From: a virus
DNA length: 43,828 nt
Virus record (IMG/VR): IMGVR_UViG_3300031718_000141
Location: 1 to 43,828 of that record
Reading direction: 5' to 3' (one strand)
The notes under the pieces are model-generated. The model was given only the letters and a program-made list of their open reading frames with translations, was not told where the DNA came from and ran no database searches. Below are positions 3,110-42,042 of the stretch, one piece after another. The position numbers were made by a program, and so were the translations under genes. The stretch's first letter is position 1. The number at the start of each line of letters is the position of its first letter.

Positions 3110-3469
3110 CTATTTCTTTGTCCAGCGCGTTACCCTGCCATGTGCCGCTACGTGGCAACGGCGGCAGATGAACAGCGTCGATTCCGGTGAGTCATCCCCG
3201 CCTTGCGCCCGCGTTGGCGAATGGTGCAGCTCGCCGGTTTCTTCCGTGATGTTCCGCCCGCAGCGATGCCCGTTGAAGCCATGCACCGGAGCCTCGCAGA
3301 ACCCCCTGCTGCGCAGGAACACCGCGTGCCTCAGCGCCGCCATGTCCAAGCCGAAGAGAAACGTCTGTATCTCCCCGTCCTTCGAGCGCTTCTTGTAGGA
3401 GTTCTTGTCCAGAAACCCAGCCGCCAGCGTTGCAGCGTCATCTTTAAACATTGGCCTACGTCGCTTCAT
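3110..3469 (-). CDS. HNH endonuclease, 119 aa
   Basis: GELHHSPTRAQGGDDSPESTLFICRRCHVAAHG matches the HNH core (HH...GG...N-position...CxxCH..H). TAG stop. Confidence 0.75.
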   Translation of the reverse strand: MKRRRPMFKDDAATLAAGFLDKNSYKKRSKDGEIQTFLFGLDMAALRHAVFLRSRGFCEAPVHGFNGHRCGRNITEETGELHHSPTRAQGGDDSPESTLFICRRCHVAAHGRVTRWTKK

Positions 3470-11187: not shown

Positions 11188-11354
11188 GGTTTTTGGGCCA
11201 GGTCGTCCTGATTTTTCTGCTTTGCGCGAGCGGGGCGTGGATACTAGCGGCTCTTTTGGCTTTTGCCTGGAACGTGCAGCCGGTGGATTTCAATTCACGG
11301 TTCATTACGTTTCTGTCGTGGATTGTTCCGCGTCCGAGGTATGCTAAGCGCTAA
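11184..11354 (+). CDS. small membrane protein, 56 aa
   Basis: ORF 11142..11354 trimmed to ATG 11184 (ATGA overlap). One TM helix. TAATG overlap with the terminase gene. Confidence 0.5.
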   Translation: MRFLGQVVLIFLLCASGAWILAALLAFAWNVQPVDFNSRFITFLSWIVPRPRYAKR

Positions 11355-12910
11355 TGGGCGTACGCAAGGGCGAACTCGACTTCAAAACCTTCATCGAGAA
11401 TCTGCCGCGCGCGCCCAAACAGCATAAATTTCTCGCCGCTGAAAACCGCATGGCCGCGATTGTCGGTGGCCGTGGCTCTGGAAAGTCCGTCGTTCTCTGC
11501 ATCTCTGCCCAAACCTTTGCCGCCAACGACCCAAACGGCATGTCCCTGATAGGCCGTCTCAACATGCCAGCGCTTGAAACCTCCACCATGCAGATTTTCC
11601 TGGAACTGGTAGAGGAAGGCTGGGGCGATTGGCAGGATTCCAAGAAGATTTTCCAGTGGAAGAACGGCCACCAGACGATTTTCAAGCATTTGGACATCAC
11701 CGACCCCAAAGTGGTGGGCCATATCAAGTCCATGAATCTGTCAGCAGCCTTTATTGATGAGGCGGTCGAGATTTCGGAGGAAATCTACTTCGTCATCCTC
11801 GGCGGAGTGCGCAGAAAGACCGCTCCCAGAAGAATTATCAGGCTAGCGTCGAATCCGGCAGGCCATGATTGGGTCTGGAGGCACTTTTTCGACCCGAACC
11901 GCAAAAAAGCGCTACAGGACAACCTCGGAATCACTATGTCGTCGATGGACAACGTGTTCTTGCCAGAGGAAACCATCGAAAACATGCTCAATACCTACCC
12001 TCCCGACTGGGCGGACCGGTTTATTTATGGCTCTTTCGCAGATTTCAGTGACTTAATCTTCAAAGAATTTAGCGAGGTGACGCATGTCTGGGACGAAACC
12101 AAGGAATACGACATCTTCGGAGGAACGCAAAACCCTCCTAACGATTGGCCGGTCATTGTCGGGATGGACATTGGAGGTGGTGAAGAAGGGGACCCTTGGG
12201 CCATACCAATCATCGCTGTGGCGCCAGATGGTCGCCTGTATCAGTACGACGAAGTTTACGGTTCCGGTCTCCGAATCAAACCAATCTCCGAGGAAATGCA
12301 CGCTAAAATTGGAAGTCACCCTATCGAGGGAATAGCCTATGACTACGCGCAAAGAGCCGCCGCGATGGAACTCGAAGAACACGGCATCTACGGCCAGCCC
12401 GCACTCAAGGAAGTCACTCCCGGCCTCTTCAAAACCGAGCAATATATGCACGTTGACCCTCGACTTGTCCACCCATTTAATCCCACGGTTAATGGCAGCC
12501 CTCGATACTTTATCTCTTCGCGGTGCCGACACACTCTCCGTGAGCTACCCGCTTACAAATGGGCAAAAGATAGGTCTGGCAACCCGAAGTTCGAGCCTGC
12601 CCATGAAAATTCCCACTGCCCATCCGCCATCCGGTACGCGATACATACTTTTAGACCGGAGCCAGAAAAGATTGCTCCCGCCAAAGCCTGGCAGAACCCC
12701 GCGCTCAATGAAATGAGTCGCCTCTACTGGTTCGAGCTGGCGAAGAAAGCGCAGTCACGCTATCCCGACAAAGGCCAGAAAATCATGACCGCGCAGGAGT
12801 GGGCGAACGTGCATGAAGTGGAAAACGCCGAACAACCCGTCATCCGCAACTTCCAGCGTTCAAGATTTACTAGATTTATCAAGCCTGCTGTGTTACGTTC
12901 GCGGCAGTAG
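11354..12910 (+). CDS. terL: terminase large subunit, 518 aa
   Basis: Walker A GGRGSGKS, Walker B-like AAFIDEAVE, C-terminal nuclease-type MDIGGGEEGDPWA. TAG stop embedded in TAGGAGGG. Confidence 0.9.
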   Translation: MGVRKGELDFKTFIENLPRAPKQHKFLAAENRMAAIVGGRGSGKSVVLCISAQTFAANDPNGMSLIGRLNMPALETSTMQIFLELVEEGWGDWQDSKKIFQWKNGHQTIFKHLDITDPKVVGHIKSMNLSAAFIDEAVEISEEIYFVILGGVRRKTAPRRIIRLASNPAGHDWVWRHFFDPNRKKALQDNLGITMSSMDNVFLPEETIENMLNTYPPDWADRFIYGSFADFSDLIFKEFSEVTHVWDETKEYDIFGGTQNPPNDWPVIVGMDIGGGEEGDPWAIPIIAVAPDGRLYQYDEVYGSGLRIKPISEEMHAKIGSHPIEGIAYDYAQRAAAMELEEHGIYGQPALKEVTPGLFKTEQYMHVDPRLVHPFNPTVNGSPRYFISSRCRHTLRELPAYKWAKDRSGNPKFEPAHENSHCPSAIRYAIHTFRPEPEKIAPAKAWQNPALNEMSRLYWFELAKKAQSRYPDKGQKIMTAQEWANVHEVENAEQPVIRNFQRSRFTRFIKPAVLRSRQ

Positions 12911-40362: not shown

Positions 40363-40891
40363 TCTGGGCTGGTATCTCTGGGCGGAGCTTGTTTCTATCC
40401 CGTTCTTCCTGTGCTCGGCGTGGGCTTTCGGGGTCTACAGCGTGGCTTACGCGGTTGTCTATTGCCTGCTGACGGCGCTCATCTTCCTGACCATTGCCCG
40501 GCTGGCGTGGGATTGCCTTGAGTCACGAAGGTATCGTTTCAGGGCTTTAGGCGTGGCGCTGACTTTTTCCATCGTCCTGACCAGAATCGCGTTTATAGGC
40601 ATTTCCAAGCCCTTCTCCGGCTACTTGGTGATTTCACTGGTCGAGGGGCTTATTCTCGCGTGGGCGGGCATCCTAGCCGTGTTTACCGCCCCTTATACGC
40701 GACGGCCCGACCTGACTTTCCCACTAGGAGCTTTGTGGCTGGGGCAGGCGTGCTACCGGCTGGGATGGGCCTTGAACTTCAGCGTCTGGCAGGAGATTAA
40801 TTGGGTGATACCGCCGATGCTCGGACTCGCGTGTTATTCATTTCTAGCGTGGCGGCTGGGCCAAAGAGCCGCTGTCGAGCATCTAAGCTAG
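40274..40891 (+). CDS. polytopic membrane protein (about 6 TM), about 205 aa (start uncertain: 40265 TTG, 40274 ATG or 40331 ATG)
   Basis: ORF track. Last gene of the plus-strand block. TAG stop. Confidence 0.6.
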   Translation: MSLAALTSGTLCLLTATSLMAGILKHPPANLGWYLWAELVSIPFFLCSAWAFGVYSVAYAVVYCLLTALIFLTIARLAWDCLESRRYRFRALGVALTFSIVLTRIAFIGISKPFSGYLVISLVEGLILAWAGILAVFTAPYTRRPDLTFPLGALWLGQACYRLGWALNFSVWQEINWVIPPMLGLACYSFLAWRLGQRAAVEHLS

Positions 40892-40939
40892 AAAATTGGC
40901 GCGCCCGGTGGTACTTAAACCCGCACAGCGCTAGCAGCC

Positions 40940-40954
40940 GGGCGCATGGCGCCC
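40940..40954. terminator. GC hairpin GGGCGC-atg-GCGCCC between the convergent blocks; possible terminator (weak T tract)
   Basis: Perfect 6-bp stem read by eye. Lies between the two copies of ATTGGCGCGCC. Confidence 0.3.
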
Positions 40955-40963
40955 CGTTCTCAA

Positions 40964-41380
40964 TTAAGAGACTGATTGCTCAGCCGGGGCATTGGCGCGC
41001 CAAGAGGGAGTCGAACCCTCAACCTGCCCAGTTAGAGTGGGCCGCTCTGCCAGTTGAGCTACAGGCGCGTAAACTCGGTAATGCTTCAGTACTTCTCTCT
41101 GCTCGCCGCGAATCGGAGCCGTCGCAATCGCTGTAAATCCCAAGTCAAAATCAGGCTCCGTCCATTCGTAATGAGGGATGCCGTTGTCCCTCAGTTTCTT
41201 GGCGGTCTTGAGCAGTGAGCGCACGTTGGGCAAGCCAATCAGGACGATGTTCGGGCAGCCCGTCTCATGCCGAATCGAGACAAGCTGGTAGATGGCGTGA
41301 TTGGATTGGACGATTTGTTGCGCGAAAGTAATATCGGTGCGGACGAAAACGTAAACGTAGGAATCAGGAATCTATGACAT
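40964..41380 (-). CDS. PTH2-like (peptidyl-tRNA hydrolase 2 fold) protein. ATG-TCA-TAG opening with an in-frame amber at codon 3; the frame has no stop before the tRNA and only closes at TAA 40966-40964.
   Basis: Hand-translated. Domain codons 41371..41069 read IPDSYVYVFVRTDITFAQQIVQSNHA...PNIVLIGLPNVRSLLKTAKKLRDNGIP...FTAIATAP...VLKHYRVY. The ORF track sees only the TTG-started 3' part (40964..41233). Confidence 0.6.
40993..41068 (-). tRNA. tRNA with anticodon CUA (amber suppressor), 76 nt, CCA encoded
   Basis: Hand fold of GCGCCTG-TA-GCTC-AACTGGCA-GAGC-G-GCCCA-CTCTAAC-TGGGC-AGGTT-GAGGG-TTCGACT-CCCTC-TTGGCGC-G-CCA. All stems are Watson-Crick except U6.U67 and G7.U66. U8, A14, G18G19, A21, U33, A37 and the T-loop are conserved. 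The anticodon is at 41035-41033. Confidence 0.85.
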
Positions 41381-41386
41381 GTGCGC

Positions 41387-41415
41387 ATTCTAGAAAATCC
41401 CTCAAACACTGTCAA
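41387..41415 (-). promoter_or_regulatory. near-consensus sigma70-like promoter TTGACA - 17 nt - TAGAAT, then 6 nt to the ATG (leaderless)
   Basis: Minus strand: TTGACA 41415-41410, TAGAAT 41392-41387, ATG 41380-41378. Confidence 0.6.
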
Positions 41416-41425
41416 GCAAAATCCG

Positions 41426-41842
41426 CTAACCTTCCTCGACCGCTTGCTGCACGTTGTCGCCGTTATTGCTTGGCGGGTAGGTCTTGCCATGGCGCAACTG
41501 GAAGTGGAAGTGCTCGTTGTCCGTGCCCGCGTTCTCCAGCCAGCCGAAAAAGTAGTCCGTCACATAGCCGCCAGAGTTGACTATCGGCGTTCCAAAGTGA
41601 GCTAAAACCTTGTCCACGAAAACGGATTTAGTTACCTCGTCCATGTCATGCGAGCGCACGTCGTAGGCGCATCCGGCGTGGTGCGGGTCGAGGTTCCCGC
41701 TGTGCATCCCGTCCGTGCCCGAGGTGATTACTAGGTCGCGTCCCATCTCCTGTCCCGTCTCCCACAGAGCCGCCAGCAAAGCAAATCCTGAAGGAGCGAT
41801 GATTGAGAATTGCACACCCGGCGCTACCGTTATGACGTTCAT
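41426..41842 (-). CDS. endolysin, zinc peptidase M15 (VanY/L-Ala-D-Glu peptidase-like), 138 aa
   Basis: ITSGTDGMHSGNLDPHHAGCAYDV...EHFHFQL gives the H-x-D and H-x-H metal ligands. ATGA overlap with the holin. TAG stop. Confidence 0.65.
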   Translation of the reverse strand: MNVITVAPGVQFSIIAPSGFALLAALWETGQEMGRDLVITSGTDGMHSGNLDPHHAGCAYDVRSHDMDEVTKSVFVDKVLAHFGTPIVNSGGYVTDYFFGWLENAGTDNEHFHFQLRHGKTYPPSNNGDNVQQAVEEG

Positions 41843-42042
41843 ATACTCGCTTTCTTTTCAATCCGCCTGACGTACCAGCGTAGAGCGTCGTTCACCATGC
41901 ACAAGCCCGCGTGGACGCCCAGCAGCACTATGAGAATTGTAGCGCCCCATTTACAAACGGAGTCGTTCTCAGAGTGAAGCAGAAGGCAAAGCACGAGCGT
42001 GAATGTCCACCAAGGCACGTTTTTGTCATATCGGCTGTCCAT
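41839..42042 (-). CDS. holin (two TM helices, basic C-terminus), 67 aa
   Basis: WWTFTLVLCLLLH and GATILIVLLGVHAGLCMV, then RWYVRRIEKK. Sits immediately upstream of the endolysin. Confidence 0.6.
   Translation of the reverse strand: MDSRYDKNVPWWTFTLVLCLLLHSENDSVCKWGATILIVLLGVHAGLCMVNDALRWYVRRIEKKASI

Follow-up and report, generated by a model that had tools for sequence, protein, structure and literature searches.

A PTH2-like phage open reading frame with an early amber codon and a CUA tRNA gene in its own reading frame

The in-frame UGA of prfB, the gene for RF2, and the AUU start codon of infC, by which IF3 is sensed, are established precedents for translational sensors. In phage lambda, the bar minigenes AUG-AUA-UAA are free-standing and act by peptidyl-tRNA drop-off. 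The rescue factors ArfA of Escherichia coli and BrfA of Bacillus subtilis are made from non-stop mRNAs, and their levels are tied to trans-translation capacity (PMC10107115, PMC8012679). For phages, stop-codon recoding and code-change modules have been described, the modules themselves being written in the standard code (Borges et al., 10.1101/2021.08.26.457843), and jumbo phages have been noted to encode PTH2 peptidyl-tRNA hydrolases (Iyer et al. 2021, PMC7824862). As for the genes that phage suppressor tRNAs serve, the paper on RsoM2USA reports one CUA tRNA with its target gene not known, the authors of XacN1 sought suppressor tRNA targets and found none (PMC5852040), and the RsoM2USA and Atu_ph07 papers go no further than speculation on such targets. 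The present analysis concerns positions 1 to 43,828 of the virus record IMGVR_UViG_3300031718_000141 (the window), on the minus strand of which an open reading frame (ORF) for a PTH2-like protein runs without a stop codon into a tRNA gene. We regard it as an even bet that the two belong to a conserved phage cassette in which a suppressor tRNA licenses the ORF that carries it, each transcript being either translated through the tRNA or processed to release it.

The junction and the reading frame beyond it

The minus-strand junction was read directly as ...GTA CTG AAG CAT TAC CGA GTT TAC / GCG CCT GTA GCT.... The final conserved codon, TAC for tyrosine (41071-41069), closes the peptide ...E V L K H Y R V Y, and G41068, immediately past it, is nucleotide 1 of the tRNA, with zero spacer. 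The frame is open across the tRNA (APVAQLAERPTLTGQVEGSTPSWRANAPAEQSVS) and stops at TAA 40966-40964. The original prediction had put the end of the domain at 41069 and the tRNA 5' nucleotide at 41068, with no stop between them and a frame running on to that TAA; direct reading and ARAGORN found these coordinates exact and bore out the open frame. Its tail of 35 amino acids is counted here as 34 sense codons before the TAA. Codon 3 of the ORF, counted from ATG 41380, is an in-frame TAG (41374-41372), so that, if this codon is decoded, the possible products are 104 amino acids (ending at 41069) or 138 amino acids (ending before the TAA); the predicted 138 stands and the predicted 103 becomes 104.

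The tRNA matches Rfam RF00005 over 41068-40996 with 60.8 bits against a gathering score of 29. Its anticodon loop reads CU-CUA-AC, with CTA starting at tRNA position 34, and it is the only tRNA that ARAGORN calls in the 43.8-kb window. When the DNA of the region was searched against phage records, only the tRNA matched. By cloverleaf and anticodon this tRNA(CUA) is an amber suppressor, and its presumed decoding of UAG has indirect support from the covariation of gate and anticodon described below. The CUA anticodon, the UAG at codon 3 and the position of the TAA in the loop of a mini-helix had all been overlooked in the original prediction, and the first two change what the element is.

For comparison, 105 relatives were collected from viral, genome and metagenome contigs, single-protein look-ups and 3 cultured-phage records, making 106 loci with the window, of which 70 were non-redundant. 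The related loci are mostly from soil or peat, and a few come from metagenome-assembled genomes (MAGs) of Chloroflexota and Gemmatimonadetes. Of 68 non-redundant loci, 52 have a tRNA, or a tRNA-like element ending in CCA, at most 25 nt from the domain end with no in-frame stop between them, and these stop-less loci span 45-75% protein identity. The gap between domain and element is divisible by 3 in 35 of the 52; there is no gap in 11 loci, the window being one and relatives the other 10, and a gap of 3 nt in 9 relatives, where ...UAC AGA, ...UAC UCC and similar sequences precede the tRNA. Among family representatives with a complete C-terminus, 17 of 166 are members with ordinary stops that end 0-5 residues past the same Y/W; tails of at least 25 residues are found in 115 of 166. 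At the DNA level, L049 (...YRLWRA-TGA) and L050 (...YRLYR-TAG) are ordinary genes with ordinary stops.

Because ordinary-stop members end at the same Y/W and the AlphaFold2 domain model is confident, the domain boundary is real and stays at 41069. Likewise, because the stop-less state is found in 52 of 68 non-redundant relatives, the stop-less junction is more than chance. The C-terminal extensions of relatives were checked for a conserved peptide unrelated to a tRNA, and the loci read at the DNA level gave translated tRNAs or tRNA-like RNAs instead. On both of its refuting conditions, the position of the boundary and the nature of the extensions, the original prediction was borne out. Tail peptides are wholly different among relatives that use different frames, with no conservation at the protein level, and the tRNA-encoded tail of the window is predicted to be disordered (AlphaFold2 pLDDT 42-56).

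The label "tRNA-punctuated ORF", given in the original prediction, fits in that the ORF abuts the tRNA; the mitochondrial scheme that it borrows does not, there being no incomplete stop for polyadenylation to complete. Such a stop was rejected because the junction codon is a complete UAC and the relatives with a 3-nt gap end in AGA or UCC. Termination of short-tailed members at the tRNA's own U8-A9-G10 was likewise rejected, since both members checked (L049 and L050) have ordinary stops. Pairing between nucleotide -1 and the discriminator, which would make a tRNA-His-like 8-bp stem and shift the RNase P site, was seen in the few gap-0 loci read but was dropped, since chance alone would give it in 3 of 4 cases.

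Downstream of the tRNA are two CCA-ending mini-helices, and the stop codon TAA of the ORF sits within the T-like loop of the first, mini-helix a, for which RNAfold gives -19.8 kcal/mol (z = -3.1). In mini-helix b, the closing stem and the T-like hairpin are intact and hairpin 1 is partly deleted in comparison with the relative L017; its z of -0.67 refers to this copy alone. Across the relatives, the mini-helix is 45-60 nt long and consists of a 7-8-bp closing stem, a variable hairpin with the loop UGCUAGU/UACUAGU or GGCA, a 3-bp hairpin with the loop TTNANT, one unpaired base and CCA. It stands before or after the CUA tRNA (examples are L002 6301-6353, L003 6285-6335 and L007 3382-3434, among others). 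Covariation was strong in both helices: 108 of 112 cells of the closing stem were paired against a shuffle mean of 69 and a maximum of 88, and 48 of 48 cells of hairpin 2 against a mean of 27 and a maximum of 39. The family is not in Rfam, and an Rfam scan of the window returned the tRNA alone. A reading of the mini-helices as HDV-like or theta ribozymes (10.1101/2023.06.13.544163) was not supported, as the window gave no Rfam ribozyme match; the 5' strand of the mini-helix pairs with the 3'-terminal strand, which ends in NCCA, an arrangement that is tRNA-like and not a nested double pseudoknot.

The stop in the mini-helix loop is tied to the frame of the gene upstream. Of 29 loci, 23 had the loop T(G/A)A in the frame of the PTH2-like ORF, and in 22 it was the first in-frame stop. 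For the 23 of 29, a binomial test gives p = 5e-7 with loci taken as independent, and 0.004 for distinct distances (11 of 16). Distances from domain end to loop stop were 30, 42, 90, 102, 105, 108, 111, 114, 117, 120 and 210 nt. The parts that make up these distances (gap, tRNA, spacer and stem) vary by non-multiples of 3, and their sums stay multiples of 3, as in 0+76+2+24, 3+76+2+33, 0+76+4+31, 4+75+1+31 and 3+73+6+35. Fused tRNAs were open in the frame that the ORF uses in 23 of 24 cases, compared with 41 of 114 (36%) unfused tRNAs of the same loci in the frame of nucleotide 1, and 9 of 41 unfused CUA tRNAs. The frame that contains the U8-A9-G10 and U35-A36-A37 stops is used by 1 of 24 ARAGORN-called fused tRNAs. 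These counts show a frame that is kept open along the tRNA as far as a fixed stop in the loop of the mini-helix. Given selection for an open frame and an in-frame loop stop, ribosomes are therefore expected to pass the junction at least sometimes.

The amber gate, the CUA tRNA and the PTH2-fold protein

At the other end of the ORF, homology (YVYVFVRTDI...) starts right behind the TAG at codon 3, referred to here as the gate. No ATG, GTG or TTG lies between the gate and TTG 41233, which sits 46 codons inside the conserved protein. Because no other start codon precedes the conserved domain, the sole start, as the frame is read here, lies upstream of the UAG, and the protein needs the UAG to be decoded. 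The -10 box of a sigma-70-type promoter (Table 1) ends 6 nt ahead of the ATG, which is a leaderless geometry, and this promoter is the sole promoter-like site in 40500-42000. Of 35 relatives, 23 have a TTGAC box 34-39 nt ahead of the ATG, and others have a Shine-Dalgarno sequence instead; the geometry of the promoter in the first case and the Shine-Dalgarno sequence in the second fix the start.

An in-frame stop gate shortly before the domain was counted by script in 62 of 70 non-redundant loci, 61 of them TAG and 1 TGA, and was seen by eye in 3 more (L100 and L102, both with a GTG start, and the truncated L087). No alternative start codon is available in 52 of the 62 gated loci. Where leader length was reported (53 loci, made up of the TGA gate and the 52 TAG gates that have no other start), the leader is exactly ATG plus one codon in 41. 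The gate codon can be set against the terminal stops of the same 62 ORFs, which are TGA in 29, TAA in 22 and TAG in 9, with the contig ending first in 2. L025, the one locus with a TGA gate, is alone in having a UCA tRNA and lacks a CUA tRNA; of the 61 TAG-gated loci, 45 have an ARAGORN-called CUA tRNA and 0 have UCA, with several more CUA tRNAs recognized by eye or by Rfam. By this pairing of codon and anticodon, the gate stop matches what the neighbouring suppressor reads. In the window, the gate (41372) and nucleotide 1 of the tRNA (41068) are 304 nt apart on the same strand, behind one promoter and with no terminator-like site between them.

A purine after UAG is a context that favours suppression. 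Directly behind the gate stop comes A in 48 loci, G in 10 and C in 4, and T in none. After the 16 ordinary TAG stops of the window, the next base is C in 8, G in 6, A in 2 and never T, which is consistent, in these small numbers, with avoidance of a suppression-prone context. TAG ends 16 of 68 window ORFs, and read-through extensions after TAG are no longer than those after TGA or TAA. No second ORF gated by ATG-N-TAG was found in the window. Global recoding of TAG by this phage was rejected, TAG being an ordinary stop in those 16 of 68 ORFs and no other recoded gene being seen in the window. The only evident client of the suppressor within 44 kb is the ORF that contains it.

For the family of the encoded protein, 892 relatives were retrieved at E <= 0.001 in an exhaustive search, and 26 in one search with the 100-residue domain. 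Differences from 12 relatives numbered 416, 281 and 696 at codon positions 1, 2 and 3, and because they concentrate at position 3, the ORF is, on this codon pattern, a real gene under purifying selection. AlphaFold2 modelled residues 1-100 with a pLDDT of 92.6. In a Foldseek search of the PDB, the top 14 matches were all PTH2 (2zv3, 3erj, 1wn2, 1q7s, 1xty, 1rlk and 2gax), with E from 5e-5 to 6e-4 and TMq 0.64-0.76 (TM about 0.74), and the next match had E = 0.15. The window protein scored 13.6-14.9 bits against Pfam PTH2 (PF01981), below the gathering score, where the cut-off is 23; PF01981 matched 6 of 14 family members at E <= 1, the best at 3.8e-4. The description "PTH2-like" in the original prediction thus holds at the level of fold and falls short of the Pfam threshold. 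An hhalign comparison of the family with human PTRH2 gave a probability of 0.4% and is uninformative.

In PTH2 enzymes, as described for that of Sulfolobus, the catalytic residues are a Lys in the G-K loop and the Asp and Thr of D-x-G-x-T. A profile alignment to the solved PTH 24bt_A placed Gln-Gln of the family opposite Lys-Lys and showed a shortened Gly-Lys-rich loop. The segment EPDFDLGFT holds D-L-G-F-T with the D-x-G-x-T spacing, in which G and T are nearly invariant and that Asp is not; the invariant residues of the family are E72-P73-D74. The protein is modelled as a PTH2 fold with a divergent active-site loop. Homology to ArfA, BrfA or ArfB was not found: Pfam, PHROGs and PDB searches gave only PTH2-type or unknown families.

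The family occurs in 35 phage records by tblastn, and in most of them the gene is unannotated or truncated. Gates were read at the DNA level in six cultured phages (Table 1), and in all 6 the conserved domain follows directly and a Shine-Dalgarno sequence precedes. These amber-gated genes have their own stop and no tRNA fusion. Salmonella phage Arash (OQ632216.1) has, about 1 kb downstream of its gated gene, a minus-strand tRNA at 49173-49247 (our locus L116) to which ARAGORN assigns the anticodon CTA and which is annotated as tRNA-Phe (49176-49247). Cronobacter GAP32 and Serratia BF appear alike, by BLAST match and annotation alone. In XacN1, Xoo-sp13 and RAS14, the domain makes up the C-terminal part of a longer ORF that has no gate, and RaK2 has a PTH2-like gene with an ordinary start. 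The amber-gated PTH2-like gene thereby offers a concrete, conserved target for phage suppressor tRNAs, which have been reported without identified targets in several cultured jumbo phages, and Arash, with its CUA anticodon under a tRNA-Phe annotation, allows the gate hypothesis to be put to a direct test in a model host. Gene callers mis-handle such loci systematically, cutting N-termini short and adding spurious tails at the C-terminus that are tRNAs translated as protein.

Table 1. Positions of the features read in the window and of the gated genes in cultured phages
Feature	Positions	Strand	Details
Sigma-70-type promoter	41387..41415	minus	TTGACA 41415-41410, 17 nt, TAGAAT 41392-41387; 11/12 consensus matches
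Leader and amber gate	41372..41380	minus	ATG (41380-41378), TCA, TAG (41374-41372), then ATT
PTH2-fold domain	41069..41371	minus	101 codons, ATT to final TAC; no stop of its own
Amber-suppressor tRNA	40993..41068	minus	ARAGORN: 76 nt, anticodon CTA 41035-41033, discriminator G, encoded CCA; within the ORF and in frame
Read-through tail	41068-40967	minus	34 sense codons, plus TAA 40966-40964; direct reading
Mini-helix a	40947..40990	minus	6-bp closing stem GCCCCG/CGGGGC, hairpin CTGA-GCAA-TCAG, T-like hairpin CTC-TTAATT-GAG (40970-40959), G-CCA
Mini-helix b	40897..40945	minus	8-bp closing stem GCGCCCGG/CCGGGCGC, degenerate hairpin 1, T-like hairpin GGT-TTAAGT-ACC, G-CCA, then ATTTTCT
Yersinia fHe-Yen9-04	LT960551.1 289127-289432		gate M-S-H-*; DNA read
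Pectobacterium CBB	KU574722.1 286024-286320		gate M-A-Q-*; DNA read
Erwinia Kaldavass	PQ464595.1 95845-96141		gate M-A-H-*; DNA read
Ralstonia RsoM2USA	MG752970.1 68883-69197		gate M-L-*; DNA read
Acinetobacter ME3	KU935715.1 166613-166909		gate M-T-*; DNA read
Salmonella Arash	OQ632216.1 50260-50547		gate M-L-*; DNA read

Further tRNA genes were noted in the relatives. Many have, behind a mini-helix, a second CUA tRNA with a variable arm of about 30 nt, a type that the window does not have (L002 6364-6463, L003 6344-6444, L007 3446-3541, L010 3440-3542, L014 3536-3632 and L015 3505-3599); these score 55-62 bits with the Rfam tRNA model and are frequently mis-parsed by ARAGORN. Directly 3' of the PTH2-like gene, tRNA-like genes of 83-86 nt were seen in L042 (2687-2772), L073 (654-736), L088 (1139-1222), L100 (1504-1589), L102 (about 447-530) and L016 (about 3368-3455). 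They have anticodon stems of 8-9 bp and loops such as CCUCAAAAG, CGUCAAAAG and CCAUAAAG, for which ARAGORN reports odd or 4-base anticodons, and may be opal or other suppressors. In the Chloroflexota MAG loci L043, L044 and L046, a CUA tRNA lies upstream of the gene and is followed by another amber mini-leader (about 2428-2436, 2368-2376 and 2415-2423, respectively, reading ATG TTG TAG, ATG CTA TAG and TTG ACA TAG), which suggests, from the codons present, further amber-gated ORFs.

A proposed cassette and its alternatives

The cassette would be a single transcription unit from about 41380 to 40890 on the minus strand, with a leaderless AUG, one sense codon, UAG, a 101-codon PTH2-fold protein, tRNA(CUA) and two CCA-ending mini-helices in that order. 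The UAG at codon 3 would serve as a sensor, the protein being made only if the suppressor tRNA of the same transcript out-competes RF1, as the UGA of prfB senses RF2. When no ribosome gets past the gate, the tRNA would fold and be excised by RNase P and 3' processing, and the mRNA would be destroyed; when ribosomes do get past, the tRNA would be translated and kept unfolded, and normal termination at the mini-helix stop would give the domain with a disordered 34-amino-acid tail. Translation through the tRNA and its folding and processing would be mutually exclusive on any one RNA. The resulting loop would limit itself: more suppressor would mean more translation of the carrier ORF and more PTH2-like protein, and probably less maturation of the tRNA. 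The PTH2-like protein would most likely handle peptidyl-tRNA or stalled complexes that arise from UAG read-through across the genome. Ribosomes arriving after the RNase P cut would meet a non-stop end, likely a minor side fate and not the selected one. Both outcomes named in the original prediction, an mRNA left non-stop by RNase P or a protein with a tRNA-encoded tail, are possible, and the comparative data favour read-through as the fate under selection.

A more ambitious version, put forward tentatively and with some doubt, is that of a self-referential homeostat, in which the race between ribosome transit and RNase P would partition transcripts and set how much UAG read-through occurs in the infected cell, with the PTH2-like enzyme and the mini-helices handling side effects. 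If this is true, a functional tRNA would be a translated part of a protein-coding frame, selected for both roles. Competition between translation and tRNA maturation on one RNA would be a new way of regulating a tRNA, and the cassette, if real, would be a natural design for tunable stop-codon suppression, relevant to genetic-code engineering.

Several points weigh against the cassette as proposed. Transcription, RNase P cleavage, suppression and translation, like every step of the mechanism, are inferred from sequence. The gate also occurs in unfused genes with their own stop, in Arash, CBB, fHe-Yen9-04, ME3 and RsoM2USA; gating would therefore serve the protein first, and feedback on tRNA maturation would be an add-on of the fused clade only. 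The catalytic Lys of PTH2 is apparently replaced by Gln, which makes hydrolase activity uncertain. The frame statistics treat related loci as independent, so that the p of 0.004 for distinct distances is the conservative figure, and the loop of the mini-helix does not supply the stop in 6 of 29 loci. Finally, the codon after the gate is a near-cognate or cognate start in 52 of 62 loci, leaving room for re-initiation.

It seems unlikely that the junction is instead a non-stop design, in which fast release by RNase P would leave an mRNA ending on the Tyr codon, to be resolved by tmRNA tagging or ArfA/ArfB-type release, so that the level of protein would report the rescue load. The zero spacer here and in 10 other loci speaks for such a design, and ArfA provides a documented precedent (PMC10107115, PMC8012679). 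In one subclade, permuted (two-piece) transfer-messenger RNA (tmRNA) genes lie about 1.5 kb upstream of the PTH2-like gene (Rfam RF04321, 59-101 bits; L025 2155-2544, L033 1479-1891, L034 1256-1649, L035, L036 and L037 1220-1620, and L041 1331-1650), and relatives of this subclade in which the protein has its own stop (L034-L037 and L041) end in ...EAA, ...VAA or ...AAA, resembling the ssrA degron. These endings come from three distinct sequences only, however, and the window has no tmRNA or rescue-factor gene. A non-stop design also leaves unexplained why the tRNA frame is open in 23 of 24 cases and why the loop stop is in frame in 23 of 29. The non-stop route may well be real as a secondary fate, alongside read-through.

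We think it improbable that AUG-NNN-UAG is a minimal upstream ORF, with translation restarting on the adjacent near-cognate codon (AUU in the window) and the suppressor a mere neighbour in the cluster. The two-codon bar minigenes of lambda are genetically linked to Pth, and the 52 near-cognate or cognate codons after the gate (ATT in 27 loci, ATC in 14, ATG in 4, ATA in 3, CTG in 3 and GTG in 1) would suit a restart. The remaining 10 gates are followed by GGG, CCA, GTC, GTT or GTA, none of them a plausible restart codon, and the purine that often follows UAG suits suppression as well. A start-stop device needs no amber codon, whereas the gate is TAG in 61 of 62 loci and the terminal stops of the same ORFs use all three; moreover, the sole TGA gate accompanies the sole UCA tRNA.

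Equally improbable is a neutral accident, in which a tRNA or tRNA-like element was inserted at or drifted to the 3' end of the gene, the stop was lost and a junk tail was tolerated and inherited: phage tRNA clusters are densely packed, the tail is disordered and not conserved as a peptide across frames, and ordinary stops in some members mean that the stop-less state is not essential to the protein, but 52 of 68 loci retain that state across protein identities of 45-75%, the order of elements (tRNA or mini-helix first), gaps and part lengths vary and yet the frame to a specific stop is kept, and the tRNA frame with easy short-tail stops is used by 1 of 24 fused tRNAs.

The phage and comparison with known systems

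The window is phage sequence, with a large terminase encoded at 11354-12910 (Pfam/PHROGs). Apart from it, some 20 ORFs tested gave no Pfam match above threshold and no PHROG family with a known function, and the phage is very distant from those described. An initial guess that 41426-41842 encodes an endolysin found no support from Pfam or PHROGs. Some adjacent ORFs in the same frame are parted only by TAG (13823-14203/14207-14602 and 34823-35089/35129-37246/37256-37489 on the plus strand, and 6224-6703/5801-6184 on the minus strand), one such pair by TAG-NN-NN-TAG. These might be joined by amber read-through, or may be chance, the extension lengths being not unusual compared with TGA and TAA.

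In the literature, which was not exhaustively covered, nothing was found that describes a PTH2-like gene with an amber gate, an ORF kept in frame across a functional tRNA gene, or a stop-bearing, CCA-ending mini-helix. With PTH2 (PF01981), the family shares the fold, the length, a hydrophobic or aromatic C-terminal end and a phage context among tRNA genes; it differs in scoring below the Pfam threshold, in a shortened Gly-Lys loop with Gln-Gln and in its own invariant E-P-D motif. Like the code-change modules, the cassette would have a phage suppressor tRNA license phage genes with in-frame stops, but the gated gene would be the tRNA's own carrier and not late or lysis genes, and the window keeps TAG as a stop. 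The bar minigenes likewise tie a phage two-codon ORF and its stop to the biology of peptidyl-tRNA hydrolase; in the cassette, by contrast, the mini-leader is in frame with, and directly before, a hydrolase-like gene, and its stop is specifically amber.

As in mitochondrial tRNA punctuation, the ORF abuts the 5' end of a tRNA and excision would set the mRNA's 3' end. Here, unlike there, no U or UA remains as an incomplete stop, and the frame continues, conserved, through the tRNA. ArfA and BrfA are comparable in that they belong to translation quality control and their mRNAs lose the stop by RNA processing or termination inside the ORF. The PTH2-like protein is related to neither in sequence or fold, the presumed cut would be made by RNase P at a tRNA and not by RNase III or a terminator, and the frame past the cut is conserved to a defined stop, which the logic of ArfA does not need. 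A parallel in principle is with prfB and infC, in which, as proposed for the cassette, an early in-frame signal is decoded in competition by the factor being sensed; in the cassette, the sensed factor would be a suppressor tRNA and not the protein product, the event would be read-through and not a +1 frameshift, and the tRNA gene lies inside the same ORF. Jumbo-phage PTH2 genes, phage suppressor tRNAs and recoding, and the non-stop regulation of ArfA were thus each known separately, and one feature of the present locus is unprecedented among them.

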